Source: Candidatus Moraniibacteriota bacterium
GTDB lineage: Bacteria; Patescibacteriota; Minisyncoccia; Moranbacterales; UBA1568
Assembly (NCBI GenBank): GCA_018061645.1
Contig: JAGOTT010000003.1
Span: forward strand, 9,326 to 73,325
Length of the DNA stretch: 64,000 nt
Direction of reading: 5' to 3'
This document shows positions 12,651-28,318 of this stretch, piece after piece (position 1 is the stretch's first letter; every line of letters begins with the position of its first letter). Both the position numbers and the translations under genes were made by a program. The notes below the pieces were generated by a model, which was not told where the DNA came from, ran no database searches, and saw only the letters and a list, made by a program, of their open reading frames with translations.

Positions 12651-12651
12651 T

Positions 12652-13677: not shown

Positions 13678-13689
13678 GAAGACAAGAAT

Positions 13690-14139
13690 ATGATTTGGGA
13701 TGCGAACAAGACGTATGCGCTACTGCTCTTCCCGCTTGTCGTCGGGATCGGGATTTTTTTCTTCCTGAAGCAGGAGAAAACCGTTCCGGAAACGGTCGTC
13801 CGGATCGGGGATCGTGAGTGGCGGACGGAAACGGTCTTCACTCCCGAGTCGCGCGCAAAGGGACTTTCGGATCGCGACACACTTTGTCCGGATTGCGCGA
13901 TGCTTTTTCGGTTCGGCGCCGAGGGGACGCATGGCTTCTGGATGAAGGATATGCGGTTTCCGATCGATATCGCCTGGATCAGGGATGGGAGAATCGTCCA
14001 TGTCGAACGTCACGTCCCGGCGGATTTCAAGGGCGTTATGACGCCACCGATCCCGGCGGATACCGTGCTTGAAACGAATGCGGGCAATCTTGACGATATC
14101 ACGACCGGTGCCGAGGTGGTCGTTCAGGAGAACTTATGA
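13690..14139 (+). CDS. DUF192-family protein
   Basis: N-terminal TM, DUF192 pattern (PIDIAWI...V..I). Confidence 0.7.
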   Translation: MIWDANKTYALLLFPLVVGIGIFFFLKQEKTVPETVVRIGDREWRTETVFTPESRAKGLSDRDTLCPDCAMLFRFGAEGTHGFWMKDMRFPIDIAWIRDGRIVHVERHVPADFKGVMTPPIPADTVLETNAGNLDDITTGAEVVVQENL

Positions 14140-14390
14140 AAATATTTTCCGAGCGGGTCCGGGACGAAGTTCGGAAGATCCCGAAAGGGAAGACCGCCAC
14201 TTATGCGGAGATCGCGGCGCGGGTCGGGAGTCCCGGCGCTTCGCGCGCGGTCGGCTCCGTCCTGCGGAAAAACTTCGATCCGGAAGTCCCGTGTCACCGG
14301 GTGATCCGGAGCGATGGGAGTCTTGGGCGATACAATCGCGGCGACGCCGAAAAGGAGCGTCTCCTCCGTGAGGAGGGAACGATACGGTGA
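14136..14390 (+). CDS. Minimal methylated-DNA-protein-cysteine methyltransferase (Ogt/MGMT C-terminal DNA-binding domain only, active-site PCHR retained)
   Basis: KTATYAEIAARVGSPGASRAVGSVLRKN...PCHRVIRSDGSLG. 84 aa only; overlaps the DUF192 stop. Confidence 0.7.
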   Translation: MKIFSERVRDEVRKIPKGKTATYAEIAARVGSPGASRAVGSVLRKNFDPEVPCHRVIRSDGSLGRYNRGDAEKERLLREEGTIR

Positions 14391-14405
14391 CGGATATGTA
14401 CCTTG

Positions 14406-14424
14406 TTACGTAACCGGTTACGTA
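14406..14424. promoter_or_regulatory. TTACGTAAC-CG-GTTACGTA dyad palindrome (member of a 7-site family)
   Basis: Perfect palindrome tacgtaaccggttacgta, 60 bp upstream of ATG 14485. Confidence 0.5.
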
Positions 14425-14484
14425 CTTTGTCCCAGCCGCACGGGATGATATACTGGAAAACCGCTAATCATTCTCAAAAAACAT

Positions 14485-14865
14485 ATGAAGGCATTGCTCG
14501 GACTCGCGGTGGCGATAGTGCTCGTCGGCGCAGGATGGTTTCTGTTCCGGGGGGTGACACCGGAGAAGACCATGGCGCCGACTGTCGGACAGGAATCCGC
14601 GTCGACCGGTTCCGTTCCCTCGGAAAAGAAAGTCTATACCATGGGAGAAGTCGCGACCCATAAGGATGCGACGGGTTGTCTCACCGTCATCCGCGGCACG
14701 GTCTACGATGTGACGGCGTTCATCGACAAACATCCGGGTGGCGACAAGAATATCCTCCGGCTCTGCGGTCTCGACGGTACCGCGTCGTTCGAAAAGAAAC
14801 ATGGCGGCCAGGAGAAACCGGAAAACGCACTCAAAGGATTCGATGTCGGTACGCTTGCACAGTAG
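14485..14865 (+). CDS. Cytochrome b5-like heme-binding domain protein, membrane-anchored
   Basis: N-terminal TM plus HPGG heme-ligand motif (FIDKHPGGDKNILRLCGLD...FEKKH). Confidence 0.75.
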   Translation: MKALLGLAVAIVLVGAGWFLFRGVTPEKTMAPTVGQESASTGSVPSEKKVYTMGEVATHKDATGCLTVIRGTVYDVTAFIDKHPGGDKNILRLCGLDGTASFEKKHGGQEKPENALKGFDVGTLAQ

Positions 14866-14900
14866 GTGTATACTGTCGGTGTAATCAGTAAACAAATCGT

Positions 14901-16070
14901 ATGGATACAAGTTCCCTGTCGCAGTATGTCGTGGAACGCGTGAAAGAGGGTGTCACGAAGGCGGAAATAAAGGAGGAGCTTCTCGCGGTCGGTTGGTCGG
15001 AAGAGGAGGCGGACGCGGCGTATCGCGACGGCGTCATCGCGCTTGGCGTTCCCGTTCCGAGCGAAGGGAACCGCCCGACGCTTTCCCGGAAATCCTCGAC
15101 CGCCGATGTCGTGATCAATTTCTTCTCGTTCATCCTGCTCGGTATTGTGGCGACTGCGCTCGGAACGCTCTATTTCGGCATCATCAGCAAGGCGTTCCCG
15201 GATCCGCTCTCCGGTATGGGGTACTACGGCGAGTCGGCCGCGATGAGTTCGATCCACTATTCCATCGCAGCACTCCTCATCGGGTTCCCGCTTTACTACG
15301 CCGCGATGCGCATCTGGTTCCGCAAATTCCGCGAGGACGAAGGCCGGACCGAATCCAAGCTTTCCAAGTGGCTCACGTATCTCGTGCTCCTGGCCGCATC
15401 GGTCACCATCGTCGGCGATCTCATCACCGTCGTCTTCACCTTCCTCCAAGGCGAGATCACCGCACGGTTCTTTCTCAAGGCGTTCACGATCCTGTGTATC
15501 GCCGGCATCATCTTCGGGTTCTACTTCCTCGAACGCAGGAAGATCCAGTACCGGAAGGATATCCCGCGGACGGTGTTCCGGAATTTCGGAATCGCGGTCG
15601 CGACGGTGGTCGCGCTCGGCATCATCCTCGGGTTCTTCGCAGGCGGTTCCCCCGAAACCGCGCGGAAGCGGTCGTTCGATATGCAGCGCGTGAACGACCT
15701 CTCCTCGCTTTCGACCTGTATCGAAAGCTATGCGACCGATCTCGGACAGCTTCCGGGATCGCTTTCGGAACTCGAGCAGTCGAGCATGTATTCGTACTGC
15801 GCGGATTCGATGCTGGATCCGGAAACGGGCGCGGAGTACGGGTACCGTATCATCACGCCGCAGCGGTTGCAGGGGGCGGCGCGTGTCGGGGAGTTCGAAC
15901 TCTGCGCGACCTTTGCGCTTCCGTCGTCCGATTCCGACCGGTCGCCTTACGGCGGTGATGTCTGGAGCAAGCACGGCGCCGGTCGCCAGTGCGACACGGT
16001 CACTGCGCAGCTCGGGACGATCGCTCCGACCATGCCGCAGGGCGGCGTGCCGTTTCCTTCGGTCAAATAA
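14901..16070 (+). CDS. Integral membrane protein (DUF5671-like N-terminal region), function unknown
   Basis: Multiple TM helices, C-terminal soluble Cys-containing region. Confidence 0.55.
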   Translation: MDTSSLSQYVVERVKEGVTKAEIKEELLAVGWSEEEADAAYRDGVIALGVPVPSEGNRPTLSRKSSTADVVINFFSFILLGIVATALGTLYFGIISKAFPDPLSGMGYYGESAAMSSIHYSIAALLIGFPLYYAAMRIWFRKFREDEGRTESKLSKWLTYLVLLAASVTIVGDLITVVFTFLQGEITARFFLKAFTILCIAGIIFGFYFLERRKIQYRKDIPRTVFRNFGIAVATVVALGIILGFFAGGSPETARKRSFDMQRVNDLSSLSTCIESYATDLGQLPGSLSELEQSSMYSYCADSMLDPETGAEYGYRIITPQRLQGAARVGEFELCATFALPSSDSDRSPYGGDVWSKHGAGRQCDTVTAQLGTIAPTMPQGGVPFPSVK

Positions 16071-16092
16071 GCGGTAGCCTGGAACAAAGAAA

Positions 16093-16131
16093 AAGCCCGC
16101 CTCCATTCGTGGGGCGGGCTTCGTTTTTTTT
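16093..16131. terminator. Bidirectional terminator between convergent genes
   Basis: AAGCCCGCC-tccattcgtgg-GGCGGGCTT followed by TTTTTTTT. Confidence 0.6.
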
Positions 16132-16598
16132 CAGCGGCGGGCGTATCCGGCGGGAACGAGCAGTCGTTTCTCTTCGGCATACTCCCATCGTGCGAGTTCC
16201 GGATTGAGTCCGTCGCCGAAAGCCGCGCGGAGCAGTCCTGTCGTCTGTGAGACGGTGGCATATGACGGGCCGATGTCGCCGCCGATCACCGGATGGTACC
16301 GGACCGGACCTCCGGAGTATTCCCGGCAGATGATCTCGTAGAGGAGCGTGTCGAGGACGATGAGTCGGAACAGTTGTTCCACCTGCCCTCGGAACATGAG
16401 GAGGCTCGTGTTTTCCGGAAGCGTGAACGCCACGGCGAGCCACTGGTGGCACCCTTCGGCGATTTCGCCGATGCGCGCTTCGCTGTAGGCGATATGCTCC
16501 GCCACTCCCGACTTCAGGATATTCCGCATGCCCTCCTCATGGGCGATGCGCATGCTCACGTCTTTGGGAGTGAGTTTCATCCGTTCGTAAACGTCCAT
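16131..16598 (-). CDS. Hypothetical protein
   Basis: ORF on the - strand. Start set at MDVYERMKL (track ORF extends to 16661). No recognised motifs. Confidence 0.45.
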   Translation of the reverse strand: MDVYERMKLTPKDVSMRIAHEEGMRNILKSGVAEHIAYSEARIGEIAEGCHQWLAVAFTLPENTSLLMFRGQVEQLFRLIVLDTLLYEIICREYSGGPVRYHPVIGGDIGPSYATVSQTTGLLRAAFGDGLNPELARWEYAEEKRLLVPAGYARR

Positions 16599-16683
16599 TT
16601 CCGCTCTCCTTCGCGTCAAAGTACAGTGTCTCTTTATAGCCTTGGAAAGGCTTCCTGTCAATCCTTTCGGAGATGAACCGTGG

Positions 16684-16689
16684 TATAAT
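16684..16689 (+). promoter_or_regulatory. TGgTATAAT extended -10 upstream of the CrtI-like gene
   Basis: tggTATAATcggg lies 35 bp upstream of ATG 16724. Confidence 0.4.
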
Positions 16690-16723
16690 CGGGATATCGT
16701 TGAACCATAACGGACGGAATCAT

Positions 16724-18211
16724 ATGGACGGAGAAAAGAAGCGCGTCATCGTCATCGGAGCCGGTCCCGGGGGACTTTCCGCCGCGATGATTCTCGCACA
16801 CCGCGGCTACGAGGTGACGGTCTATGAGAAACAGCCTCACATCGGCGGACGGACGTCGTGCCTTCGGGTCGGTGATTTCCGTTTCGAACTCGGTCCGACC
16901 TTCGTCATGCTTCCGCAGATCTTCGAGGAAGTCTTCGCGCTCTCCGGAAAGAAATTCTCCGACTATGTGGAGTGGACGCAGCTCGAGACGATGTACCGCC
17001 TCCGGTACGGGGACGGTCGTGACTTCCGCGTTTTCTTCGACAAGGACAAGCTCCGCGAGGAGATCGCCCGGGTCTTTCCCGGGGACGAGGCGGGATATGA
17101 CCGGTACCTCGTCGCGCAGAAGAAGAAATTCGACCTCATGTACCCGTGCCTCAAGGTGCCGTATCACCGGTGGTACCACTATCTCCGGTGGAAGCTCCTC
17201 AAGGCGTTCCCGTACATGGACAACTTCTCCTCCGTCCACGACGTCCTGGGCCGATACTTCTCCCATGAGGATATGAAGATCTCCATGAGCTTCCAGTCCA
17301 AGTATCTCGGGATGTCGCCCTGGTCGTGTCCCGGTGCCTTCACCATCCTCTCTTATGTCGAGCACGCCTTCGGCATCTATCATCCCAAGGGCGGCGTCCA
17401 TAAGATCCCCGAAGCGATGGCGAGAGTCGCGGAGGAGAACGGCGCCAAAATCGTCCTTGGCAAAGGGGTTTCCAAGGTGCTTGTCGAGGACGGTCGCGCC
17501 AAGGGGGTCGTCTTCGCGGACGGCAGTACCGACCGCGCGGATTTCGTCGTCATGAACGCGGATTTCGCCAAAGGTATGACCGACCTCGTTCCGGAGGAAC
17601 GTCGCTCCCGATGGAACGACAGGAGCCTCGCGAAACGCCCGTACTCGTGTTCCACCTTCATGCTCTACCTCGGGCTCGGGAAAAAATACGACATCCCGCA
17701 CCACAACATCGTCTTCGCGGAGGACTACCGCAAGAACGTGGAGCAGATCTTCGAGTCCGGAACGCTTCCGGGCGACCCGTCCATCTACATCCAGAACGCG
17801 TCCGTGACCGACCCGTCGCTCGCTCCGGAGGGTAAGTCGACGATCTACGTCCTCGTGCCGGTGCCGAACCTCGACACCCCCATAGACTGGGAAAAGGAGA
17901 AGCAATCCTATCGCGACCTTGTCATCAAAAAGATCGCCGAAAAGACCGAACTTTCCGATATCGCCGAACACATCGAAGCGGAGCGCATCATCACGCCCGC
18001 CGACTGGGACCGCGACGCGGACGTCTACAAGGGTGCCGTCTTCAACCTCGCGCATACCCTGGGGCAGATGCTCTATCTCCGCCCGCACAACCGCTTCGAG
18101 GAACTCCCGGGACTCTACCTCGTCGGCGGCGGGACGCATCCGGGGAGCGGACTCCCCACCATCCTCGAGTCGGGGAGAATCGCCGCGGATCTCATCGCCG
18201 AGGAACGTTGA
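16724..18211 (+). CDS. Phytoene desaturase (CrtI) family FAD-dependent oxidoreductase
   Basis: VIVIGAGPGGLSAA dinucleotide-binding motif. CrtI-family architecture and C-terminal LVGGGTHPGSGLP. Confidence 0.8.
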   Translation: MDGEKKRVIVIGAGPGGLSAAMILAHRGYEVTVYEKQPHIGGRTSCLRVGDFRFELGPTFVMLPQIFEEVFALSGKKFSDYVEWTQLETMYRLRYGDGRDFRVFFDKDKLREEIARVFPGDEAGYDRYLVAQKKKFDLMYPCLKVPYHRWYHYLRWKLLKAFPYMDNFSSVHDVLGRYFSHEDMKISMSFQSKYLGMSPWSCPGAFTILSYVEHAFGIYHPKGGVHKIPEAMARVAEENGAKIVLGKGVSKVLVEDGRAKGVVFADGSTDRADFVVMNADFAKGMTDLVPEERRSRWNDRSLAKRPYSCSTFMLYLGLGKKYDIPHHNIVFAEDYRKNVEQIFESGTLPGDPSIYIQNASVTDPSLAPEGKSTIYVLVPVPNLDTPIDWEKEKQSYRDLVIKKIAEKTELSDIAEHIEAERIITPADWDRDADVYKGAVFNLAHTLGQMLYLRPHNRFEELPGLYLVGGGTHPGSGLPTILESGRIAADLIAEER

Positions 18212-18215
18212 TCCC

Positions 18216-19424
18216 ATGAATACCTTCCAATCGCTTCGGCTCATCCACGAGCTCTACTTCAAGAAAGGGTTGCCGGATCTCGATCTCATCCAATCGTACG
18301 GACTGCTCGCGGTCAAGATAGGACAGCTTCACGCGCTGCGGCTCGACTTCCTCCCCGCGGAGAAATGCGAACACCTCGCGCAGCTCTACCGCGCCGCCTC
18401 GCCGATCCCGGCCGAGGATATCGACACGCTGCTTTCGGCGCACGGCGGACCGGAGTTCCGCAAGCGGTTCTCGTCCATCGACCGTGACCCCATCGCCGTC
18501 GCCTCGGTCGGCCAGGTCTACCGCGCGACGCTTTCCGACGGGACGCCCGTCGCGATCAAGGTGATCAAAAAGGACTTCAAGGAACGGTTCTCGCGCGACG
18601 TGGCGAAACTCCGCCGATTCTTCCGGCTCGTCATCGCGCTCTACCCGCGGCTTCGCGGCGTCGGCGATCCGCTCGGGATCCTTGGTGATATCGAGGAATA
18701 CACGACCGCCGAACTCGACCTGCGAAACGAAATGCGCGGGCAGGCCGTCCTGCGCGAGCTTCGCGACCGTCACAAGGAGTCGTTCGACCTCTCGCTCCTC
18801 GGGTTTCCGAAGATATACCCGGAGCTTTCCGGCGAAAACGTCCTCGTCTCGGAATTCATCGAGGCGCCCACCGTCGACGAACTCCTGTCACGGGGCGCCT
18901 TCACGTACGATGACATGCTCGAGCTCTTCTATCTCCAGGGCTTCTTCATGTTCAAGGCGGGAAAGTTCCACGGGGACTTCCATCCGGGCAACATCATGTA
19001 TGACGGGAAGCGGTTCTTCCTCGTCGACACCGCATTCGTGGGCGAAGTGGGCGACCGCATCCGTCGGGGACTCTTTTTCTTCTTCGAGGCGCTCACCCGG
19101 TCCGACTCTCCGAACTGCGCGAAATTCCTCAACGAGATGGCCGATGCCCGGATCGAAGGCGAGGCCTTCGCCACATTCGAACGCGCCTTCATCGACCTGT
19201 ACCGCGACTTCGGCGGAAAGACGGTCTCGGAAGTGTCCCTCACCCGTCAGATGATGCTTACCATCAAGCTCGGGGTAAACTCCGGCATGGTCTTCGAGAA
19301 GGGGATCTTCGCGATCATCCGGAGCCTCATGTATCTCGACGGCATGGTGCTCAAATGCAACCCGGACGCCGTCCTGATGAACGACATGCGGAAATTCGTC
19401 ACGCGGTTCGAGCACGACGTCTGA
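18216..19424 (+). CDS. ABC1/UbiB-family atypical kinase
   Basis: ADCK/UbiB motifs: IASVGQVYRATL, AIKVIKKD, HGDFHPGNIMYD. ATG at 18216 lies 4 nt after the CrtI-like stop, so the two genes are likely co-transcribed. Confidence 0.8.
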   Translation: MNTFQSLRLIHELYFKKGLPDLDLIQSYGLLAVKIGQLHALRLDFLPAEKCEHLAQLYRAASPIPAEDIDTLLSAHGGPEFRKRFSSIDRDPIAVASVGQVYRATLSDGTPVAIKVIKKDFKERFSRDVAKLRRFFRLVIALYPRLRGVGDPLGILGDIEEYTTAELDLRNEMRGQAVLRELRDRHKESFDLSLLGFPKIYPELSGENVLVSEFIEAPTVDELLSRGAFTYDDMLELFYLQGFFMFKAGKFHGDFHPGNIMYDGKRFFLVDTAFVGEVGDRIRRGLFFFFEALTRSDSPNCAKFLNEMADARIEGEAFATFERAFIDLYRDFGGKTVSEVSLTRQMMLTIKLGVNSGMVFEKGIFAIIRSLMYLDGMVLKCNPDAVLMNDMRKFVTRFEHDV

Positions 19425-19440
19425 ATTCTCCGTGGTCGGA

Positions 19441-19470
19441 TTGACAAAAAACCGGTGAAAGAGGCATACT
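19441..19470 (+). promoter_or_regulatory. Sigma70-like promoter (TTGACA-18-CATACT) of paralog X1
   Basis: ttgacaaaaaaccggtgaaagaggCATACTg. The same -10 is reused at 20170-20186 and 21264-21269. Confidence 0.5.
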
Positions 19471-19509
19471 GCGCGGAGCAATCCGTTTCTTTCACAAAAG
19501 GAGGCTGCC

Positions 19510-20076
19510 ATGAGCGACGCGAGAATACTGTCCCTTGATGCGTTCCGCCAAAGAAACCGGCGGAACCCTGTAGCCAACCAATCGTTCGACGTCCTGTTTG
19601 AAAGCGCGCGCGAACTTCGAAGCATCGGACGGGAATTGGTCCCGGGAGAAATAGCGGTCATGACCTGGAGCGGGATGCAGAGTTGGTTCCGGAGAGAGAT
19701 CGCCGACGAAGTGTTCCGGAGGCGCATGTTCGGAAGATGCGTCCTTCTCTCCATAAGTTTCGTATCCGACCTGCTCACTTCCTTCGCGAACGATTGTGGC
19801 GATCGGACCGGCATCGTCGAGCATCTGGATGAATACGCCGGAGAGGGGAACCCGGAGGGTATCCTCGATGCCGCGAATACCGCGTTTCTCATGTTCGCGC
19901 TGTGGCCGGAAAAAAGGACACGGCGATCGGTGCAATACCGTCAGTTGGCGCTTGCCTTCGGCCCGTCTCTGTATGCGATGCATGCGGGGCGTGTGCGTCG
20001 GGATTTCGGCTACTGCATGGCCGAGGCTTTCGAGCCGCTCGGCGACATCGCCCGCGAACGATTCGGTCACACATGA
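19510..20076 (+). CDS. Hypothetical 188-aa protein, paralog X1
   Basis: About 85% aa identity to 21314-21880. The C-terminal 140 aa are about 95% identical and the N-terminal 50 aa about 60%. RBS AAGGAGG present. Confidence 0.7.
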   Translation: MSDARILSLDAFRQRNRRNPVANQSFDVLFESARELRSIGRELVPGEIAVMTWSGMQSWFRREIADEVFRRRMFGRCVLLSISFVSDLLTSFANDCGDRTGIVEHLDEYAGEGNPEGILDAANTAFLMFALWPEKRTRRSVQYRQLALAFGPSLYAMHAGRVRRDFGYCMAEAFEPLGDIARERFGHT

Positions 20077-20095
20077 CCGGTTCAATCAATCGCAT

Positions 20096-20124
20096 CCGGG
20101 GAGCCACGCTCCTCGGATTTTTTT
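20096..20124 (+). terminator. Rho-independent terminator after X1
   Basis: CCGGGGAGC-cac-GCTCCTCGG followed by ATTTTTTT. Confidence 0.6.
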
Positions 20125-20149
20125 ATGGAAAATGCTTTCGAGTTCGTTT

Positions 20150-20186
20150 TTGACAGGATTTTTATCTTGTTACATACTGTATGTAA
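20150..20186 (+). promoter_or_regulatory. Promoter (-35 TTGACA, -10 CATACT) with an operator palindrome TTACATAC-t-GTATGTAA over the -10
   Basis: tttTTGACAggatttttatcttgTTACATACtGTATGTAAtag. 8-bp perfect inverted arms. Confidence 0.55.
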
Positions 20187-20212
20187 TAGAAGTAAACAAA
20201 TAACGCACGAGT

Positions 20213-21184
20213 ATGAAGAAACAGGAGAAGAAGGGCGTCGTCATCTATCAGGCGAAATCCGGAGCCATCGAGCTGCGCGGGGATTTCGGCAAGGAGACGA
20301 TGTGGGCGAGCCTCGACCAGATAGCGGACTTGTTCGGCCGTGACAAGTCGGTGATTTCGCGTCATATCAAGAACATCTTTAAAGACGGTGAGTTACAGCG
20401 GGATTCAGTTGTTGCATTTTTTGCAACAACTGCTGCTGACGGGAAAACGTACAATGTCGAATATTTTGATCTCGACATGATCCTCTCCGTAGGTTATCGG
20501 GTGAATTCGAAGACCGCTACCAGATTCCGTCAGTGGGCGACGAAGACCCTTCGCGAACACATCGTGAAGGGTTACACCATCAACCGGTCCCGCATCGCGA
20601 AGAACTACGACGCGTTCCTCGCGTCGGTCGAGAGCGTGAAGAAGCTTCTCCCTGCGGGCGGTGCGGTGGATGCGGAGAGCGCCCTCGAGCTTGTCAGGCT
20701 CTTCGCGAGCACGTGGTTCTCGCTCGATGCCTATGACCGATCGACTCTCCCTAAGTCCGGCGCGACGAAGCGGCAGGTCCGGGTGACCGGAGCCGACCTC
20801 TCCGCCGCTCTCGGCGAACTGAAAGGTGAACTGCTCTCGAGAAAGGAGGCGACAGATATCTTCGGGGAAGAACGACAGAAGGAAGCCGCCACCGGAATCA
20901 TCGGCAACGTGCTTCAGTCGTTCGGCGGGAAGGATCTCTATCCGACCGTCGAGGAAAAGGCGGCGCACCTCCTGTATTTCATGGTGAAGAATCATCCGTT
21001 CGTCGACGGCAACAAGCGGAGCGGCGCCTTCGCGTTCGTGTGGTTCCTTCGCAAAGCGCGCGTTCTCGACGCCACTAGGCTCACCCCGGAGGCGCTTACC
21101 GCACTTACGCTCCTCGTCGCCGAAAGCGATCCGAAAGACAAGGACCGTGTAACCGCCCTCGTCGTCTCCCTCATCCGCGGATAA
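20213..21184 (+). CDS. RhuM-family N-terminal domain fused to a Fic/Doc-family (death-on-curing type) domain
   Basis: N-terminus is RhuM-like (VIYQAKSGAIELRGDFGKETMWASLDQIADLFGRDKSVISRHIKNIF). C-terminus carries the Doc/Fic core motif HPFVDGNKRSGAFAF. Confidence 0.8.
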   Translation: MKKQEKKGVVIYQAKSGAIELRGDFGKETMWASLDQIADLFGRDKSVISRHIKNIFKDGELQRDSVVAFFATTAADGKTYNVEYFDLDMILSVGYRVNSKTATRFRQWATKTLREHIVKGYTINRSRIAKNYDAFLASVESVKKLLPAGGAVDAESALELVRLFASTWFSLDAYDRSTLPKSGATKRQVRVTGADLSAALGELKGELLSRKEATDIFGEERQKEAATGIIGNVLQSFGGKDLYPTVEEKAAHLLYFMVKNHPFVDGNKRSGAFAFVWFLRKARVLDATRLTPEALTALTLLVAESDPKDKDRVTALVVSLIRG

Positions 21185-21239
21185 ATCCGACGTATACGAA
21201 GAAGTCCGCTTCATGCGGGGGCTTTTCGGATCGGCCGTA

Positions 21240-21269
21240 TTGACAACGGAAGGCGGACGGGGACATACT
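21240..21269 (+). promoter_or_regulatory. Promoter (TTGACA-18-CATACT) of paralog X2
   Basis: attgacaacggaaggcggacggggaCATACTgtgcggagc. Parallel to the X1 promoter. Confidence 0.5.
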
Positions 21270-21313
21270 GTGCGGAGCCATCGTTTCCATTAACAAGAAG
21301 AGGAGTACATACC

Positions 21314-21880
21314 ATGAGTGACGCACGGATACTGTCTCTTGACGAATTCCGGAAAAGAAAGACCAGCGGTCCGTCGATCCATCAGGAGTTCGATGTCCTG
21401 TTCAGGAACGCGCGCGAGCTTCGGGGCGTCGGGCAGGATCTGGCGCCCGAAGAGATCGCGATCATGACCTGGAGCGGGATGCAGAGCTGGTTCCGGAGAG
21501 AAATCGCCGACGAAGTGTTTCGGAGGCACATGTTCGGAAGATGCGTCCTTCTTTCCATAAGCTTCGTATCCGACCTGCTCACTTCTTTCGCGAACGATTG
21601 TGGCGATCGGACCGGCATCGTCGAGCATCTGGATGAATACGCCGGAGAGGGGAACCCGGAGGATATCCTCGATGCAGCGAATACCGCGTTTCTCATGTTC
21701 GCGTTCTGGCCGGAAAAGCAGACGCGGCGATCGGTGCGGTACCGCCAATTGGCGCTCGCTTTCGGTCCATCCCTCTATGCGATGCATGCGGGACGTGCTC
21801 GCCGGGATTTCGGCTACTGTATGGCCGAGGCTTTCGAGCCGCTCGGCAACATAGCTCGTGAACGGTTCGGTCACGGATGA
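21314..21880 (+). CDS. Hypothetical 188-aa protein, paralog X2
   Basis: See X1. Own RBS (AGAGGAG) and terminator. Confidence 0.7.
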   Translation: MSDARILSLDEFRKRKTSGPSIHQEFDVLFRNARELRGVGQDLAPEEIAIMTWSGMQSWFRREIADEVFRRHMFGRCVLLSISFVSDLLTSFANDCGDRTGIVEHLDEYAGEGNPEDILDAANTAFLMFAFWPEKQTRRSVRYRQLALAFGPSLYAMHAGRARRDFGYCMAEAFEPLGNIARERFGHG

Positions 21881-21897
21881 CCGACCAAGCCATCCAT

Positions 21898-21926
21898 CCG
21901 GGGAGCCGCGCTCCTCGGATTTTTTC
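21898..21926 (+). terminator. Rho-independent terminator after X2
   Basis: CCGGGGAGC-cgc-GCTCCTCGG followed by ATTTTTTCG. Confidence 0.6.
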
Positions 21927-21927
21927 G

Positions 21928-22005
21928 TTTACCCAGTCGGACTGGATTTTTTACGATCGCGGTGGGAGAATGTCGGTGGGTCTAAACATGATTTTTCGCA
22001 TATGA
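21928..22005 (+). promoter_or_regulatory. Conserved leader element L1: TTTACCCAGT-hairpin-GGTGGGAGAATG with an 11-codon uORF whose stop overlaps the downstream ATG
   Basis: gtTTACCCAGTCggACTGGatttt...cgcGGTGGGAGAATGtcggtgggtctaaacatgatttttcgcatATGAtc. uORF MSVGLNMIFRI* (21970-22005) overlaps ATG 22002 as ATGA. Confidence 0.45.
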
Positions 22006-22535
22006 TCGAACAACCGTTTGCGCAGCCGCAGAAGCCGGATCTGTCCGAGGACGACAAGAAGCAGATAGAGCTCACTTCCTATATAAAGAAACACGGATAT
22101 ACCGCGAACCAGATCCGGGAAGCGTATGTCCTCGTGATGGGTACGGACGAAACTCCGTCGGAAGATCCTGGCGTCGAGGACCTTCGGACCAAGCTGCAGT
22201 CGATGATCGACGACGGATTCCCCGTGAACCGGATTGGGGAGCTGGTCGAGATGAAGTGGACCGTCGAAAACTCCAAGGAACGGTGCCTCTCGTATATCGA
22301 CACCCTGGATGTTTCGGAGAACGAGAAACGGCTGTTGTCCTCGATAGTCGAGCGCCGCAGGAGCGGCGAACTCGTCGTCATGATCGACAATCAGGATGTG
22401 GCGAGCATGCGGATACATATCAAGGACAACACTTCGATCGAAGCGGTCGCCATCGAGTTTCAGGAGGGCCTTCAGAAAATCATCGATCGCATACCCAAGG
22501 AGAAGCGGTATGAATTCTCCTTCACGGAGAACTGA
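22002..22535 (+). CDS. Hypothetical 177-aa protein
   Basis: Start at ATG 22002 (track ORF begins at GTG 21858 inside the terminator/leader). Acidic, no recognised motifs. Confidence 0.55.
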   Translation: MIEQPFAQPQKPDLSEDDKKQIELTSYIKKHGYTANQIREAYVLVMGTDETPSEDPGVEDLRTKLQSMIDDGFPVNRIGELVEMKWTVENSKERCLSYIDTLDVSENEKRLLSSIVERRRSGELVVMIDNQDVASMRIHIKDNTSIEAVAIEFQEGLQKIIDRIPKEKRYEFSFTEN

Positions 22536-22585
22536 AAGTGATCCGCGCTTCTTTTGTTATTCCGAGCGAAACCGAGGAATCCGGA

Positions 22586-22610
22586 AACCCGCTTTACACG
22601 CGGGTTTTTT
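22586..22610 (+). terminator. Rho-independent terminator (part of a repeated about 65-bp module, copy 1)
   Basis: AACCCGC-tttacac-GCGGGTT followed by TTTTAG. Module 22548-22612 recurs at 24100-24163. Confidence 0.6.
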
Positions 22611-22612
22611 AG

Positions 22613-22701
22613 TTTACCCAGTTGACTTGCATTCAGTCGACAGGGGTGGGAGAATGGACGGGCTGAAGTCCTTTCCCGAACCGCATACCAGGAGGGCATG
22701 A
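22613..22701 (+). promoter_or_regulatory. Conserved leader element L2 with a 15-codon uORF overlapping the start of the 22698 gene
   Basis: gTTTACCCAGTtgacttgcattcagtcgacaggGGTGGGAGAATGgacggg...ggagggcATGATGgac. uORF MDGLKSFPEPHTRRA* (22654-22701) ends with the ATGA overlap. Confidence 0.45.
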
Positions 22702-23084
22702 TGGACACGCGTTTCGAAGTCTGTTCCCAATGCCGGAACCACGGGCATTTCGTTTTTCTCATCGGCACGCGGTCGTCGGATCTCCTGTGCCAATCCGACG
22801 CGTACGAGGCGATGATGGGTTACTACCGGGCCGACAAGATACCAAGCGGGGACATAAACCTGCTCGTTGAGCAGATCAGGCAGTCCGGTCTTCCGCTGTT
22901 CCTGTCCCAGGAAATCCTGGACGTTATGCAACGGGAGGGCAGTACGGAGACGATGATGCTCAATAATCCGATCGTCTGGCCTACCGATTGGGACCCGGAA
23001 GGTCACGAGGTGGCCCATACCGCTGCGGATATCGTGTGCTCCCTCTGTCAGGAACTGATCGACGGACGGCCGATGCTCCAATAG
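22698..23084 (+). CDS. Hypothetical 128-aa Cys/His-containing protein
   Basis: CSQCRNHGH...C...CSLC pattern suggests possible metal binding. No family recognised. Confidence 0.5.
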   Translation: MMDTRFEVCSQCRNHGHFVFLIGTRSSDLLCQSDAYEAMMGYYRADKIPSGDINLLVEQIRQSGLPLFLSQEILDVMQREGSTETMMLNNPIVWPTDWDPEGHEVAHTAADIVCSLCQELIDGRPMLQ

Positions 23085-23212
23085 GCGGTCTATATCCGAT
23101 CCCGCGTATCTCACAATGCGCGGGATTTTCATTGTATCCTGTCGGACTTGCTCGTTCGATTGTGGTTTGCCGTGTCGGGCCGGCATTTGCCAACTTTTTT
23201 CTATCTTTGGAA

Positions 23213-23248
23213 TGTATCATAATCCTACGGCCGTGGAATTATGATACA
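23213..23248. repeat. 36-bp palindromic element TGTATCATAAT-cctACGGCCGTgg-AATTATGATACA, copy A
   Basis: 11-bp perfect inverted arms around an ACGGCCGT core. Identical copy at 23962-23997. Confidence 0.7.
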
Positions 23249-23288
23249 ATTGTCGGGTGGCGATATATGCGGTTTTTCATCGACGCGT

Positions 23289-23960
23289 ATGTATAAGTTC
23301 GGACCAGTGCAGCAGAAAGTGCTCCTCGTGCTTGCCGGCGGCGCGGCGCTCAGCCTTTCGAATTCGTCGGTGCAGTATTATCGGACGCTCCGGAAACTGC
23401 GGCGCGAGTGGATGGATATCGATCAGCGGAATTTCAGTCGTTCCGTCCGGAGGCTTGCGCAGCAGAAGCTGCTCGAGGAACGGGTCATGCCCGACGGATC
23501 CTTCAAGCTCGTGCTCACGGCGGAAGGGAAGCGTCAGGCGAAGCGTCTCGACCTTTTCGGACAGTCGATACGCTTCCGAAAGCCGAAGCGGTGGGACAAG
23601 CGATGGCGCGTGGTGATGTTCGATATTCCGGAGAAGAGCCGGACCTTTCGGGATATCCTGCGGGAACATCTGCGGGAGATGCGGTTCTATCGGCTCCAGC
23701 AGAGCGTATTCGTGTCCCCGTATCCGTTCGAGAAGCCGCTCCAGGAACTGGTTGATCTCTATGGCGCGGATCCGTATGTGCGGATCATGACGGTGGGATG
23801 GATCGACAATGAGAAATTCCTCAAACGGCATTTTTTCCGTCCGCGGAAAACGGGAGGCGACAAGAACGGGAAAGGGGAATTGAAAACGAAAGTGAAAGAG
23901 GGGGAGAGGGAAAAAGAGAAGGAGAAGGAGAGAGAAAGCGCGAAACCTACGGAAAAGTAA
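23289..23960 (+). CDS. Winged-helix regulator-like protein with a Cas2/VapD-fold-like (PaaX-C-like) C-terminal region and a Lys/Glu-rich tail
   Basis: The C-terminal segment RWRVVMFDIPEKSRTFRDILREHLREMRFYRLQQSVFVSP resembles the Cas2/PaaX beta-alpha pattern. N-terminal HTH-like region. ATG 23289 (track ORF starts inside the palindrome at 23241). Confidence 0.5.
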   Translation: MYKFGPVQQKVLLVLAGGAALSLSNSSVQYYRTLRKLRREWMDIDQRNFSRSVRRLAQQKLLEERVMPDGSFKLVLTAEGKRQAKRLDLFGQSIRFRKPKRWDKRWRVVMFDIPEKSRTFRDILREHLREMRFYRLQQSVFVSPYPFEKPLQELVDLYGADPYVRIMTVGWIDNEKFLKRHFFRPRKTGGDKNGKGELKTKVKEGEREKEKEKERESAKPTEK

Positions 23961-23961
23961 A

Positions 23962-23997
23962 TGTATCATAATCCTACGGCCGTGGAATTATGATACA
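23962..23997. repeat. 36-bp palindromic element, copy B, immediately after the stop codon of the 23289 gene
   Basis: Identical to 23213-23248. Confidence 0.7.
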
Positions 23998-24136
23998 TTT
24001 TGTATTAGGGATGTGGGGAGGATGGGGATAGGGAGGGGGACGAGGGTGAGAGGAAGGGAGGGAGGATTTGAGATACGGGATTGGAGGAAAGAGCAGGCCT
24101 TCTTTTGTCATTCTGAACTCCGCGCAGGAATCCGGA

Positions 24137-24161
24137 AACCCGCTTTACACGCGGGTTTTTT
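24137..24161 (+). terminator. Rho-independent terminator (repeated module copy 2), at the left edge of the low-GC island
   Basis: AACCCGC-tttacac-GCGGGTT followed by TTTTTAG, then GTGGGAGAAT. Confidence 0.55.
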
Positions 24162-24186
24162 AGTGGGAGAATAGATATGTAATTAA

Positions 24187-24206
24187 TTACGTAATTCGGT
24201 ACGTAA
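24187..24206. promoter_or_regulatory. TTACGTAAT-tcg-GTACGTAA dyad motif 9 bp upstream of the AbrB-like gene
   Basis: aTTACGTAATtcgGTACGTAAtttcaatcgtATG. Confidence 0.45.
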
Positions 24207-24216
24207 TTTCAATCGT

Positions 24217-24393
24217 ATGGCAAATAAAGCGAAAGACGAAAAGGATGTCAGAAAACTTACCAAGGTCGGGGGAAAATCGATCAGCGTAACCCTGCCGATC
24301 GACATTGTCCGGGAACTGGGGTGGAAAGAGAAGCAGAAGGTCGTCGTGAAGCGTGTCCACGGAGGGGTGATGATCAAGGATTGGAAGAAATAA
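24217..24393 (+). CDS. AbrB/MazE/SpoVT-family DNA-binding protein (58 aa)
   Basis: MANKAKDEKDVRKLTKVGGKSISVTLPIDIVRELGWKEKQKVVVKRVHGGVMIKDWKK shows the swapped-hairpin pattern (K..GGS.SVTLP....LG...G..V). Below the 60-aa cutoff, so absent from the ORF track. Confidence 0.55.
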   Translation: MANKAKDEKDVRKLTKVGGKSISVTLPIDIVRELGWKEKQKVVVKRVHGGVMIKDWKK

Positions 24394-24396
24394 TTA

Positions 24397-24728
24397 TGGC
24401 AACAGCTTGGTTTGAAAAATTTATTGTTCTTTTGGAGAAACTTATACTTTATCCTCCGTACCTTGTATTTCTTTTTGTTGGTGCCCCGATATTGATGATT
24501 TCTCTCATAATGAAGAACTGGACCGAGCCAATCGGGATATTTTTCTTGTATAGTGCTGCTGGTGGGGTATGGCGGTATATTGAGAAAGATTTGGACCATG
24601 GAATTGGAAGTGTTCTTAAAGAAGAGAAAAGTAAAAATATTGCTCATCTTGTAGTTATCTCTGTGTACCATATCGGGAATGTCGGTTTATTTTTGATGCT
24701 ACTGCACTATCTCAACAAAGCCTTATGA
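24397..24728 (+). CDS. Small membrane protein (3 TM), low-GC
   Basis: MATAWFEKFIVLLEKLILYPPYLVFLFVGAPILMISL... Start overlaps upstream and downstream genes, so operonic with mod. Confidence 0.5.
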
Positions 24729-26872
24729 TTCTTTCTGAAAACGAAAAGCGAGACATTATTAAATTTCTGGAAGCTGGGAAACCGCTTCCGGAGAAATATC
24801 GTTTTTTGCTTTTCAAAGATGATCGTGAAGTGGAGCTTGTGTGGAACGGCAAGACAAATGAGGTGACTAATGTTGTTTTGCCTTTTCAAGTAATTGAGCA
24901 GATCGACGAACCACGAGAGGGGAAGGAGTTTGGTGACGCCCGAGGGACGCTCTTTGATATGAGTGGCAAGCAAATTTCAGGCTGGACCAACAAGCTTATC
25001 TGGGGAGACAACAAACTTATTCTCTCGTCTCTCAAAAATGGTCCGATGCGAAAAGAGATTGAGGCACAGGGTGGTCTCAAGCTCATCTATATCGATCCTC
25101 CCTTTGATGTCGGTGCTGATTTTTCTATGGATATAGAAATTGGTGAAGGTGGTGATACTGAGAGCTTTACGAAGAAGCCTTCGGTTATTGAAGAAATTGC
25201 CTATCGCGATACTTGGGGTAAGGGTGCAGATAGCTTCATCGCAATGATTTATGAGCGTCTCAAATTGATGCACGAACTTCTTGCTGAAGATGGAAGCATT
25301 TACGTTCACTGTGATTGGAGATTATCTGGTCACATAAGATTGGTTCTTGATGAGGTATTTGGAAAAGATAATTTCAGAAATGAGATTATCTGGAAGTACA
25401 GTGGAGGTGCAAGTTCTAGCCGGTTTTTTGCTCGAAAACATGACACTGTGTTTTTTTATTCCAAATCAGATAAATACAACTTTAATCAACAGTTTGAAGA
25501 TTTTGCAGAAACAACAATCGCTAGGTTTAATAAGGTTGATGAAAACGGTAGACGGTACAAAGAAAACAGAATGGCTGATGGCAGAGTTTACAATACCTAC
25601 ATGAACGAGGAGGGTAAGCCAGCTACGGATGTATTTGAGTTCAACATTGTGGTTTCAAGTCATGATGAAGCAGTAAAGTACCCGACTCAAAAACCAGAAG
25701 CATTTTTGGAGAGGATAGTAAAAGCATCTTCAAACGAAGGTGATCTGATAGCAGATTTTTTTATTGGTTCAGGTACAACCTTGGCTGTTGCTGAAAAACT
25801 TGGTCGCAAGTGGATCGGTACTGATCTCGGGAAATTTGGTATTCATACTTCGCGTAAGAGGATGATTGGTGTACAGCGTGAACTCAAAAAGGCCGGAAAG
25901 GACTTTCGCGCGTTTGAGATTTTGAACGTTGGTAAATACGAACGTGAGAGCTTCCTCAGTATCAATAGCGACTTGCGCTCAGAAGAAAAAGAAAAACAAG
26001 CACAACGAAAAGAAAAAGAGTTTATCAAGCTCATTCTTTCTGCGTACAAAGCTGAATCCGTGGAAAGTTTTGCAAATATCGTCGGCAAGAAACGGGACCG
26101 TCTTGTAGCGGTTGGTCCTATCAACATGCCTGTATCTCAGAAATTTATCCAAGAAATAGTCGATGAATCAAAAAAGAAGGGCTTCACTAAAGTTGATGTG
26201 CTGGGCTTTGATTATGAGATGGGACTTGTATTTGATGATTTTGTGACGCAAGGTTTGGATATTGCGTTTAAGATTATTCCTCGTGAAGTGTTTGACAAGC
26301 GCGCTGTCGAGCGTGGTCACGTGAACTTTTATGACGTTGCCTACATCGACATAAAGTCGATAGTGACTGGCCGCGGAAATACGAAGGAACTTTCCATTGA
26401 GCTCACTGATTTCTCCGTGTTTTACAATCAAGATTCTTCTGCGACAGAAGAATTGAAAGCCGGAAAATCAAAGGTTGTCGTTCAAAGCGGCCAGGTTATC
26501 AAGATTTCAAAAGATAAAGATGGAAATGAATTGCCGCCCGAAGTTCTCACCAAAAAATGGAGCGACTGGATTGATTATTGGGCAGTTGATTATAATTTTG
26601 CGGATCGAAAAGAAATTATCCGTGTGCCAAAGACGCAAGGGGATAATTTATTTGAGAGAGGAAAGGAACAAAGTCTGCTCGATTACGAAGAGGTTTGGAC
26701 AGGAGACTATATCTTTGATAACGAATGGCAAGCCTTCCGTACCAAGAAGAATCGAAATCTTGAACTGGTTTCTGCTCCAAAAGAACTTCCAAAGGGCGAT
26801 TATAAAGTTGCTGTAAAAGTTGTAGATATTTTTGGGAATGATACTACTAGAGTAATCGATGTGAAAATATGA
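24725..26872 (+). CDS. mod: Type III restriction-modification system methyltransferase (Mod, beta-class N6-adenine/N4-cytosine MTase)
   Basis: Motif IV IYIDPPFD precedes motif I DFFIGSGTT (circularly permuted beta class). Size 715 aa. Adjacent Res helicase-nuclease. Confidence 0.85.
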   Translation: MILSENEKRDIIKFLEAGKPLPEKYRFLLFKDDREVELVWNGKTNEVTNVVLPFQVIEQIDEPREGKEFGDARGTLFDMSGKQISGWTNKLIWGDNKLILSSLKNGPMRKEIEAQGGLKLIYIDPPFDVGADFSMDIEIGEGGDTESFTKKPSVIEEIAYRDTWGKGADSFIAMIYERLKLMHELLAEDGSIYVHCDWRLSGHIRLVLDEVFGKDNFRNEIIWKYSGGASSSRFFARKHDTVFFYSKSDKYNFNQQFEDFAETTIARFNKVDENGRRYKENRMADGRVYNTYMNEEGKPATDVFEFNIVVSSHDEAVKYPTQKPEAFLERIVKASSNEGDLIADFFIGSGTTLAVAEKLGRKWIGTDLGKFGIHTSRKRMIGVQRELKKAGKDFRAFEILNVGKYERESFLSINSDLRSEEKEKQAQRKEKEFIKLILSAYKAESVESFANIVGKKRDRLVAVGPINMPVSQKFIQEIVDESKKKGFTKVDVLGFDYEMGLVFDDFVTQGLDIAFKIIPREVFDKRAVERGHVNFYDVAYIDIKSIVTGRGNTKELSIELTDFSVFYNQDSSATEELKAGKSKVVVQSGQVIKISKDKDGNELPPEVLTKKWSDWIDYWAVDYNFADRKEIIRVPKTQGDNLFERGKEQSLLDYEEVWTGDYIFDNEWQAFRTKKNRNLELVSAPKELPKGDYKVAVKVVDIFGNDTTRVIDVKI

Positions 26873-27414
26873 GCAAAAAAATCGCAAAGAAAAAATTTCA
26901 GCCCTTTGTGCATGACAATCTCGACATAAAAAACGAGCTTCTTCAGCTTGCAAGAAAAGCGAGAGAATCGAAGAGCATTGAGAATGATCTTGCTTCAGTC
27001 CTCATCTATTCGAACATAGCAGAATATTTGGCAGAGCACTTGCTTGATACATTGAGCCATCTTGTTTATAAGAGCTCTTATAATAGTTTTGGAGGGATTT
27101 TGTTTGTCGAGTCTGTGTCACGATCGGGGAAGAAGACACTTAATCAAACAGTGGAAGAGCTTGAGAAATTCAATTTTCCTGATAAGGACGGAATCGTCCA
27201 CTGTTTCAGAAAAATAGCAGATTCTCGGAACAGAATATTTCACAACTTTGCGAAGAGTGATATCAATTCAATAAAGGATCTGCTTGAGAAAGATTTGCCA
27301 GTTATTCAGGAAGAATGTGAAGAAATTATCAACAAAGTGAATACGGTTTATGCTGGTTTGCAAAAGATTTTAGGACAGCAGGAGAATGGCAATGAGAGCC
27401 AGGATGAGAAATAA
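26869..27414 (+). CDS. Hypothetical 181-aa protein embedded between mod and res
   Basis: Translationally coupled (ATGA overlap with mod). No recognised motifs. Confidence 0.55.
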   Translation: MSKKIAKKKFQPFVHDNLDIKNELLQLARKARESKSIENDLASVLIYSNIAEYLAEHLLDTLSHLVYKSSYNSFGGILFVESVSRSGKKTLNQTVEELEKFNFPDKDGIVHCFRKIADSRNRIFHNFAKSDINSIKDLLEKDLPVIQEECEEIINKVNTVYAGLQKILGQQENGNESQDEK

Positions 27415-28245
27415 ATGGGTTCAAGAGAAATTATGAAAAGAATCCGCATCTATTCAGATGAAAGCCGACACAAGAACGAGCGGTTTTTATTGCTTGGAGG
27501 ACTTTGGATTGAGGAAGAAAAAGTGAGGATTGTGGAGGAGCTTATCGGACAGCTGCGAAAGGAGAGTGGGTACACGAGGGATGATGGACAAAGGATTGCT
27601 TTCCTTGGCGAATTCAAATGGAAGAAAGTATCGGATAAGTATATTGCCGTCTATAAGCAGCTTGTCGATATTTTCTTTGATTGTATCGAAAAGGATGCTT
27701 TCCGGTTTTGTGTCATGCTTGTCGATACGCATAATCCGGTTGTTGTGGAGCAGAGCAATATAAAGAAAGAAGGATACTTCAAACTGCTCTACCAGCTCTA
27801 TCTTCACAATTCAAAAATCCCAGCACTCTATCGGATCCACCCTGACAGCATCACAAATCCAGCTCAAGACAAAGTCGATTTTTCGACTCTCGATAAATGC
27901 CTGGATCGGGCATTTCTTAAGAAGTTCTCTCCGCTCGTAAACCCGGCGGATCTCCCTAATGGTAAGGGATTCGTGGAAGAGATCGTTTCGGTGAATTCGA
28001 AAAGTTCCGAATTCATCCAACTTGTGGATGTGGTAATGGGCGGTATCGGATATTTTCAGAATCGTCTTTTTACGAATCCGGATGCGAAGAAGGCGAAGAT
28101 CGAACTTATGAAGTACATTTTTGACAAGCTTATCTATTCCGGGACGATCCAAACAACAGGAAAACGATATATTGTGGCGCGGTCGACAAAATTCAATATC
28201 TGGGTATTTCGACCAAAAAATAAAAAAGACCCTCAAGCTTGTTGA
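27415..28245 (+). CDS. DUF3800-family protein
   Basis: N-terminal IRIYSDESRH (DUF3800 I.IDESG-like motif). Starts 1 nt after the upstream stop. Confidence 0.65.
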   Translation: MGSREIMKRIRIYSDESRHKNERFLLLGGLWIEEEKVRIVEELIGQLRKESGYTRDDGQRIAFLGEFKWKKVSDKYIAVYKQLVDIFFDCIEKDAFRFCVMLVDTHNPVVVEQSNIKKEGYFKLLYQLYLHNSKIPALYRIHPDSITNPAQDKVDFSTLDKCLDRAFLKKFSPLVNPADLPNGKGFVEEIVSVNSKSSEFIQLVDVVMGGIGYFQNRLFTNPDAKKAKIELMKYIFDKLIYSGTIQTTGKRYIVARSTKFNIWVFRPKNKKDPQAC

Positions 28246-28271
28246 GAGTCGCTTTTATGGAGTCCTGAGTG

Positions 28272-28318
28272 CTGGGTCAGTGCCCGGTGTGACATCAGTC
28301 ACAGGAGACGTCACCCAG
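28272..28318. other. GC-rich nested hairpin inside an AT-rich intergenic region (possible terminator or structured element)
   Basis: CTGGGT...TGTGAC-atca-GTCACA...ACCCAG. Confidence 0.3.

Follow-up and report, generated by a model that had tools for sequence, protein, structure and literature searches.

A paired orphan gene and a RhuM/Doc toxin-like gene at a probable defence-island border in a Moranbacteria-like genome

A 64,000-nucleotide stretch of contig JAGOTT010000003.1 from Candidatus Moraniibacteriota bacterium (the window, by which we mean the whole stretch at its full length) carries two copies of a gene for a 188-residue orphan protein, here called X1 and X2, on either side of a gene that fuses a RhuM-type N-terminal region to a Doc-type Fic domain (RhuM/Doc). 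A first-pass annotation of this DNA had taken the two copies for a recent duplication and had proposed them as candidate immunity, antitoxin or specificity partners of the toxin-like gene. We consider it probable, though by no means settled, that the region is a hypervariable defence-island border in a Moranbacteria-like genome of the candidate phyla radiation (CPR), that X2 is a recombinant inserted allele, and that no specific toxin-antitoxin relation exists between X and Doc. Our comparisons with relatives (loci numbered L001 onward) show the anatomy of the locus, the mosaicism and insertion status of X2, the sizes of the gene families and the contexts in which X recurs.

Results

Mosaic structure and probable insertion of X2

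By its sequence relations, X2 was probably acquired as a unit from a foreign allele and then homogenised in part with X1. The two proteins are identical at 161 of 187 positions (86%), and this identity is unevenly spread, at 63% over residues 1-52, 97% over residues 53-130 and 90% over residues 131-188, which agrees with the ~60% and ~95% given for the N- and C-terminal parts in the first-pass annotation, whose gene coordinates and length of 188 amino acids were also correct. That annotation read the pattern as recent duplication with fast-diverging N-termini, a reading that fails on two counts: the 5' third of X2 comes from another X lineage, and the near-identity of the centre includes synonymous sites. 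Residues 1-52 of X2 are 85% identical to P0004, the X protein of locus L014, compared to 63% for X1. At the nucleotide level, the X2 promoter and first ~40 codons show 84-96% identity to the L014 locus and 52-72% to X1, and over 21486-21686 sliding identity is 92-98% to X1 and 66-78% to L014. The two genes differ at 9 of 240 nucleotides in codons 51-130 compared to 79 of 324 in the flanks, and at third positions the counts are 7 of 80 in these codons and 46 of 108 elsewhere (Fisher p = 2e-7). Between lineages the nucleotide conservation of the centre is unremarkable, at 66-78% for X1 or X2 against L014. As the near-identity of the centre reaches silent sites and the centre is not unusually conserved, it points to gene conversion and not to purifying selection. 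Furthermore, X1 and X2 are not mutual closest relatives over their full length, as recent duplicates should be, and the origin of the X2 5' tract in a different, pre-existing X lineage indicates that X2 is not a recent tandem duplicate.

The closest relative, L023, matches window 10000-16664 at 98.5% identity and the PaaX-like gene at 96%, and across X1, RhuM/Doc and the downstream gene p225 its identity is only 86-88%. Its gene order is a 155-aa gene on the minus strand, a single X (95% identical to X1), RhuM/Doc (82%), p225 directly after it, and the PaaX_M-like gene. Three segments of the window are missing from L023: 16665-19433, the X2 unit (Table 1) and 22615-23205, which holds the small gene p128. 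The single X of L023 together with the foreign 5' tract of X2 indicates that X1 is the resident copy and X2 the inserted piece. Loss of X2 from L023 is formally possible, yet the foreign 5' tract favours insertion. The alternative offered by the first-pass annotation, a cassette inserted between tandem paralogs, is likewise unsupported in view of the one-X order of L023, by which X2 itself is the probable insertion. That annotation also suggested looking for an X-RhuM/Doc-X arrangement in relatives. The first half of it recurs, with X next to RhuM/Doc in L013 and L023 and separated from it by a 171-aa gene in L022, where the order is CrtI, ABC1, X (70%), the 171-aa gene and RhuM/Doc (75%). The second X does not recur, X being single-copy in the other lineages, and no further X paralogs were found in the window or in related loci.

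The missing segment at 16665-19433 is a strain-level indel directly upstream of X1; its 2.77 kb hold a CrtI-like FAD amine oxidase/desaturase and an ABC1 atypical kinase, are absent from L023 and L013, and are present in L022 at 81-91%.

The X1-Doc-X2 tandem could in principle be an assembly chimera of two strain variants of one locus, as the source is a metagenome-assembled genome, a near-identical tract of ~240 nucleotides is present in both copies, and strain-level variation at the locus is considerable among relatives. We hold this to be extremely improbable. A separate record, L026 (GCA_020047435.1, 1947 bp), is 100% identical to window 20390-22336, covering RhuM/Doc, X2, p225 and both junctions of the X2 unit, and this makes a chimera unlikely. 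The junction between X1 and RhuM/Doc is also seen independently in L013, L023 and L022, and had two variants been joined at the shared tract, the product would be one hybrid X, without two complete units and a Doc gene in the middle.

Table 1. Features of the X1-RhuM/Doc-X2 locus and of the region downstream, in window coordinates
Feature	Position	Strand	Basis or remark
X1 promoter-like site, TTGACA-N18-CATACT	19441-19470	+	conserved architecture upstream of X in relatives
X1, 188-aa all-helical orphan, resident copy	19510-20076	+	95% aa identity to orthologous X of L023 and L013
X1 part of homogenised (gene-converted) tract, codons 51-130	19660-19899	+	difference counts compared with flanks
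X1 intrinsic-terminator-like hairpin (20094-20118) plus T-run	20094-20125	+	also after X in six relatives
RhuM/Doc promoter-like site, TTGACA-N17-CATACT	20150-20178	+	also in L013, L023, L022
Perfect palindrome TTACATAC-t-GTATGTAA, candidate operator	20170-20186	.	overlaps RhuM/Doc -10 box
RhuM-N / Doc-type Fic fusion, 323 aa, PADLOC candidate PDC-S23	20213-21184	+	Pfam, PADLOC, Foldseek
X2 unit: promoter, gene, terminator	21187-21935	+	insertion relative to L023; junctions confirmed in L026
X2 tract from other X lineage (L014/P0004-like): promoter and ~40 codons	21237-21436	+	nucleotide and aa identities
X2 promoter-like site, TTGACA-N18-CATACT	21240-21269	+	
X2, 188-aa mosaic paralog of X1	21314-21880	+	
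X2 terminator-like hairpin (21896-21920) plus T-run	21896-21925	+	
p225, probably 176 aa from ATG at 22005	22005-22535	+	directly after RhuM/Doc in L023
p128, small Cys-containing orphan	22698-23084	+	absent from L023; family adjoins X in three other lineages
PaaX_M/Cas2-like-domain protein	23241-23960	+	41-nt palindromes on both sides
MazE/AbrB-like 58-aa gene preceding restriction-modification system	24217-24393	+	kept downstream of X in L006, L007, L010-12, L019-21
Low-GC Type III restriction-modification island with HepT-like and DUF3800/PDC-M04A genes	24725-31205	+	

Promoters, terminators and a palindrome

X1, RhuM/Doc and X2 lie in the same orientation, each behind a promoter-like site with the -10 hexamer CATACT. 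The pattern TTGACA-N17/18-CATACT has three matches in the whole 64 kb, where 0.01 would be expected by chance, and all of them are at these genes, which bears out the first-pass observation of a common -10 box. The duplicated DNA runs from the -35 box through the T-run of the terminator (~19434-20125 and ~21233-21925) with a mean column identity of 88%, and the two terminator hairpins, of 11 pairs each, are one base apart; each X was thus correctly described as having its own promoter and a near-identical terminator. RhuM/Doc is followed by a weak hairpin at 21205-21235. The X promoter architecture is kept in 10 of the 10 lineages examined, with a CATAGT variant in L019, and is retained across X lineages as low as 45% in amino acid identity, while the hairpin terminator is kept 3' of X in L001, L007, L013, L014, L022 and L023. 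At RhuM/Doc the corresponding site has TTGACG as its -35 box in L022. Two further interpretations of the hexamer were considered and rejected: CATACT as the general -10 box of the genome, as the window holds no other good site, and CATACT as an operator half-site for X, as nothing beyond the hexamer is conserved across X promoters.

The palindrome with 8-bp arms that had been reported over the toxin promoter is present and overlaps its -10 box. About 5 palindromes of this size class are expected by chance per window, so that the evidence for a function lies in its position over the -10 box and in its retention in relatives; it is perfect with 9-bp arms in L013 and L023 and has one mismatch in L022.

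The RhuM/Doc gene

As judged from profile matches, the window gene is an ordinary stand-alone RhuM/Fic/DOC member of a very large, already named family, and its description as a fusion of a RhuM N-terminus to Doc holds. The N-terminal part matches Pfam Virulence_RhuM (PF13310) with 78 bits against a cut-off of 33.7, residues 65-130 aligning on profile positions 1-69 only, as well as the PDC-S05 (RhuM-N) profiles, and its winged-helix-like domain gives a weak HTH_38 match. The C-terminal part matches Fic/DOC (PF02661) with 49.1 bits against a cut-off of 24. Over its full length the protein is colinear with the PDC-S23 profile PDLC04965 (E = 5.2e-110, residues 6-322 on positions 4-324 of 327), it is labelled a Doc-like toxin by PHROGs, and its sole match in the PDB sequence search is the Doc-family structure 9vzc. 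In a structure model with a mean predicted local distance difference test score (pLDDT) of only 69, Foldseek placed the C-terminal domain with P1 Doc (3K33, 3DD7 and 3KH2) at a probability of 0.98-1.0, which is 1.0 for 3K33 and 3DD7, and a target TM-score of 0.65-0.69. The Doc-type motif HPFVDGNKRSG occupies residues 261-271, and HPFVDGNKR (261-269) is invariant in 60 homologues. The first-pass annotation had named a lack of other essential Fic-fold residues as something that would refute its reading; the Doc domain looks intact.

The two-domain architecture recurs in at least 8000 homologues, of which the best ~120 show 65-83% identity to the window protein. The name 'virulence protein RhuM/Fic/DOC family protein' is attached to many of these, among them proteins of Moranbacteria, Kaiserbacteria and other phyla, and plasmid homologues stand alone without an X-like neighbour. 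No open reading frame for a Phd/YefM-type antitoxin was found upstream in 20077-20212, which agrees with the earlier remark that Doc has no Phd beside it. RhuM-DOC fusions within restriction-modification neighbourhoods were noted by Anantharaman et al. 2013 (PMC3710099). In the literature we found no experimental paper on toxic or anti-phage activity of RhuM/Fic/DOC proteins (PDC-S23, which is itself just a candidate system).

Within the RhuM domain, window 20329-20500 (about residues 40-96) is 45-53% identical to L013 in nucleotides while the rest of the gene is 82-98% identical; the protein in this patch stays near the family consensus, giving it the look of a recombination patch inside the toxin-like gene.

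The X family

As far as homology searches reach, X is a lineage-restricted orphan, and the promoter and terminator that go with it are strongly conserved. The protein has no match in Pfam, NCBIfam or PHROGs, a chance-level match alone in PADLOC (E = 0.03), and none in a profile search of PDB sequences; Foldseek of the X model against viral structures returned nothing with E < 0.4, and a Pfam scan of 82 superfamily members found no family in common. The AlphaFold2 (AF2) model (pLDDT 76.6) is an eight-helix bundle in which the N-terminal ~50 residues are poorly defined, and in a family-wide alignment residues ~14-50 are the least constrained part of the protein. One candidate function, an ECF (extracytoplasmic function)-sigma-like protein, was considered on account of the all-helical fold, the length of ~190 residues and the conserved promoter, and was dropped as there is no sigma-70 r2/r4 signal and the fold hits are without sigma structures.

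Close relatives of X form 28 clusters in a word-indexed search, and a profile search of 1.84 billion representatives (E <= 0.001) gives a superfamily of 142 proteins, nearly all stand-alone and about 170-200 aa long. The named members are all from CPR bacteria (Moranbacteria, Kaiserbacteria and Campbellbacteria). Genome and metagenome scans yielded four loci, namely three copies of known ones and a short new contig, L018, and a viral contig scan and phage BLAST did not find X. The GTDB/NCBI records that carry X with the gene Fic291 (L010-L012, L015 and L016) are labelled 'uncultured Bdellovibrionales bacterium' metagenome-assembled genomes; as every other named member of the family is from CPR, mis-binning or mislabelling is possible.

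Downstream region and defence-island context

Upstream of X the genes are different in each lineage. Downstream, X is followed by zero to three genes, a MazE-like gene and a restriction-modification system in five arrangements across lineages, and the type of system varies: Type III in the window, Type I in L006 and L007, an EcoRI-like methylase in L019 and D12/N6_N4 methylases in L010. Even L023, so close to the window in its left flank, differs in its downstream cargo, which consists of Fic350, RadC and a Type I restriction-modification system compared to Type III in the window. Loci L002-5 and L014 have X without restriction-modification genes in the DNA retrieved. That X is kept with the island side while the upstream genes vary suggests that X moves together with a variable defence island, whose 5' edge it marks.

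The island of the window is ~7 kb long with ~40% guanine plus cytosine (GC) compared to ~57%. The low-GC stretch at 24000-31200 contains the MazE-like gene, a 135-aa open reading frame, a Type III methyltransferase, the HepT-like and DUF3800/PDC-M04A genes and a Type III restriction enzyme with a TnsA-like endonuclease domain, and a PD-(D/E)XK nuclease comes next at 31266-32024. No Rfam match was found in 15-33 kb, and no tRNA near the island.

The MazE/AbrB-like gene encodes 58-60 residues with 72-82% amino acid identity across CPR lineages and lies directly upstream of differing restriction-modification types (6695-6871 in L006, 7847-8023 in L007, ~5792-5935 in L010 and 7151-7333 in L019, besides the window gene). 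Possibly it acts in the manner of a controller protein, as a regulator that the swappable restriction-modification cargo has in common. Palindromes resembling TTACGTAA lie upstream of it in the window (24176-24205) and in L006, and their motifs resemble the arms of a perfect 18-bp palindrome, TACGTAACCGGTTACGTA, which occurs twice ~19 kb apart (14407-14424 and 33271-33288). A 41-nt near-perfect palindrome, AATGTATCATAATCCTACGGCCGTGGAATTATGATACAATT, stands on both sides of the PaaX_M/Cas2-like gene (23211-23251 and 23960-24000) and three times in L023 (9759-9799, 10437-10477 and 11890-11930); its possible roles are those of operator, terminator and recombination site.

Gene p128 comes two genes after X2, and p128-like genes adjoin X, upstream or downstream, in L007 (5467-5868), L010 (3509-3928) and L019 (6624-7025), which makes this family as frequent beside X as Fic genes are. 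The region after X2 has the appearance of successive promoter-gene-terminator cassettes whose spacers are homologous: an intergenic module of a terminator, then TTTACCCAGTCGGACTGGATT, then GGTGGGAGAATG is repeated between small genes, with repeats at 21916-21948, 22601-22633 and 23121-23153, at 22548-22613 and 24099-24164, and at 21954-21972 and 22638-22656. Near X in L011 there is a further local tandem amplification, namely three 138-aa paralogs with 35-57% identity that stand one after another at 352-1983, upstream of a PIF1 helicase.

Discussion

Is X a partner of Fic/Doc enzymes?

The proposal that X1 and X2 are cognate antitoxin or immunity partners of Doc can be put more widely, namely that X is a functional partner of Fic/Doc-fold enzymes (immunity, antitoxin, regulator or target mimic) whose variable N-terminal ~50 residues set specificity, so that two alleles would widen protection or control. 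The N-terminal 50 residues are the most variable of the protein, modelled with low confidence and possibly flexible, and X2 keeps a distinct N-terminal allele though the rest of the gene was converted. X also has the same promoter type as RhuM/Doc and occurs beside three non-orthologous Fic-family genes in three lineages. Against this stands the wider distribution of both families. In five X lineages (L001, L002-5, L007, L014 and L019) the DNA retrieved, which reaches up to 6 kb on each side, contains no Fic/Doc gene, and X homologues away from such genes are what the first-pass annotation had itself named as refuting its reading; RhuM/Doc homologues outnumber the close X clusters by more than 100-fold; and an X relative is found in 0 of 80 viral RhuM loci. 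The local arrangement is also unlike that of a toxin-antitoxin pair, as X has its own promoter and terminator and forms no operon with Doc, and in L022 another gene lies between them. Where X has other Fic neighbours, Fic291 (L010) and Fic380 (L006) are of the canonical HPFxDGNGR kind with an [ST]xxxE[GN] inhibitory motif of their own, and so they need no separate antitoxin, whereas in X this motif matches in 1 of 28 members, at a non-conserved position, and Pfam and NCBIfam show no Phd/YefM signature. We infer from this that X has no role with Doc, and we regard a partnership in the wide sense as distinctly unlikely. The stricter form makes X the dedicated partner of the Fic/Doc-fold enzymes that occur in CPR defence islands, be it as immunity protein, regulator or substrate decoy, with its N-terminal ~50 residues as a specificity module swapped by recombination; this is in our view very unlikely. 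If it were true, X1 and X2 would be two 'immunity' alleles placed around a Doc toxin, and Doc would have an antitoxin of a new class.

Several observations nevertheless weigh against the absence of coupling between X and RhuM/Doc that we favour. A Fic-fold gene lies at most three genes from X in three lineages, and the genes are non-orthologous (RhuM/Doc in the window clade, Fic291 in L010-12 and Fic380 in L006); this proximity might stem from a functional link instead of common residence in the island. The pattern TTGAC[AG]-N17/18-CATACT has 14 sites in ~170 kb of CPR DNA, every one of them at an X or RhuM/Doc promoter, and a model of no coupling leaves this promoter sharing unaccounted for. 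The contexts of X come, moreover, from about 10 lineages, several of them on short contigs. As for adjacency, Fic, Doc and RhuM genes are known as hitch-hikers of restriction-modification loci (PMC3710099), which makes shared island residence the simpler explanation.

The promoter also invites a different explanation, in which X serves to regulate or maintain the island itself, acting for instance on transcription or against defence, and is co-regulated with RhuM/Doc via the common promoter, its duplication altering dosage or specificity. Consistent with this, the X promoter persists in distant X lineages and otherwise occurs only at RhuM/Doc, X is linked to the MazE-like gene and restriction-modification module while its upstream neighbours vary, and the p128 family is recurrent beside it. 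However, X has no recognisable DNA-binding domain or fold, the hexamers amount to a near-consensus sigma-70 -35 box and one -10 variant with no further conserved operator in X promoters, and the X loci of L002-5 and L014 are those without restriction-modification genes in the DNA retrieved. We judge such a regulatory or maintenance role to be unlikely.

A probable border of a variable defence island

The reading we prefer, a defence-island border with X2 as a recombinant allele, may be pictured as follows. X would habitually sit just upstream of variable cargo, followed by the MazE-like gene and then by an interchangeable restriction-modification system. In the window clade the first cargo gene would be RhuM/Doc, with a RhuM/winged-helix-like domain at its N-terminus and a Doc-type Fic fold at its C-terminus. 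By analogy with P1 Doc, the protein may act as a kinase-type translation toxin and provide an abortive-infection layer beside restriction-modification, and its N-terminal domain may repress its own promoter via the palindrome at the -10 box. A complete promoter-gene-terminator unit of an L014/P0004-like allele would then have been inserted between RhuM/Doc and p225 by inter-strain recombination, and its centre, and partly its 3' end, would afterwards have been homogenised with X1 by gene conversion, in what we take to be the order of events.

With the toxin-like gene routine and the duplication explained by recombination and gene conversion, the locus holds little new biology. It does show cleanly, for a CPR genome, an allele that was captured and then converted in part. 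In Moranbacteria-like genomes the MazE-like gene, X and the p128 family make up a recurrent scaffold beside swappable restriction-modification systems, and this scaffold and the promoter signature of X and RhuM/Doc are the only loose ends worth following. Should X neutralise or regulate Doc/Fic enzymes, it would be the first of a new class of partner, which is unlikely on present evidence.

Comparison with known systems

The window gene shares with the RhuM/Fic/DOC family (PDC-S23) its two-domain architecture, its length, the Doc-type motif, the restriction-modification island alongside and the lack of an adjacent antitoxin, and flanking by two X copies is its sole local peculiarity. Its C-terminal domain has the Doc fold and the HxFx(D/N)(A/G)NKR motif of Phd-Doc of phage P1. 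The resemblance to Phd-Doc stops there: no Phd/YefM-like gene lies upstream, the toxin domain is fused to a RhuM N-terminal region of ~200 aa, the TIGR01550 score of 30.3 bits is under the cut-off of 38.65, and X, at 188 aa, is predicted to be separately transcribed and is unrelated to Phd. Class I Fic toxins with a separate antitoxin (FicT/FicA and VbhT/VbhA) differ in that X is without the inhibitory-helix motif [ST]xxxE[GN].

With defence-island hotspots, in which conserved genes bound a cargo that strains exchange by recombination, the locus shares near-identical flanks (98.5%), presence or absence of whole units, a swap of restriction-modification type between close relatives and a low-GC insert. 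Most of our loci, unlike these hotspots, show no integrase next to X, and the 'anchor' X goes with the island side and not with any core gene that is conserved, as the genes upstream of it are different ones in every lineage. With ectopic gene conversion between paralogs the locus shares a sharply bounded tract of near-identity, synonymous sites included, amid otherwise diverged X copies. It differs in the history of those copies, as X1 and X2 appear to descend from different alleles joined by recombination and not from a duplication in place.

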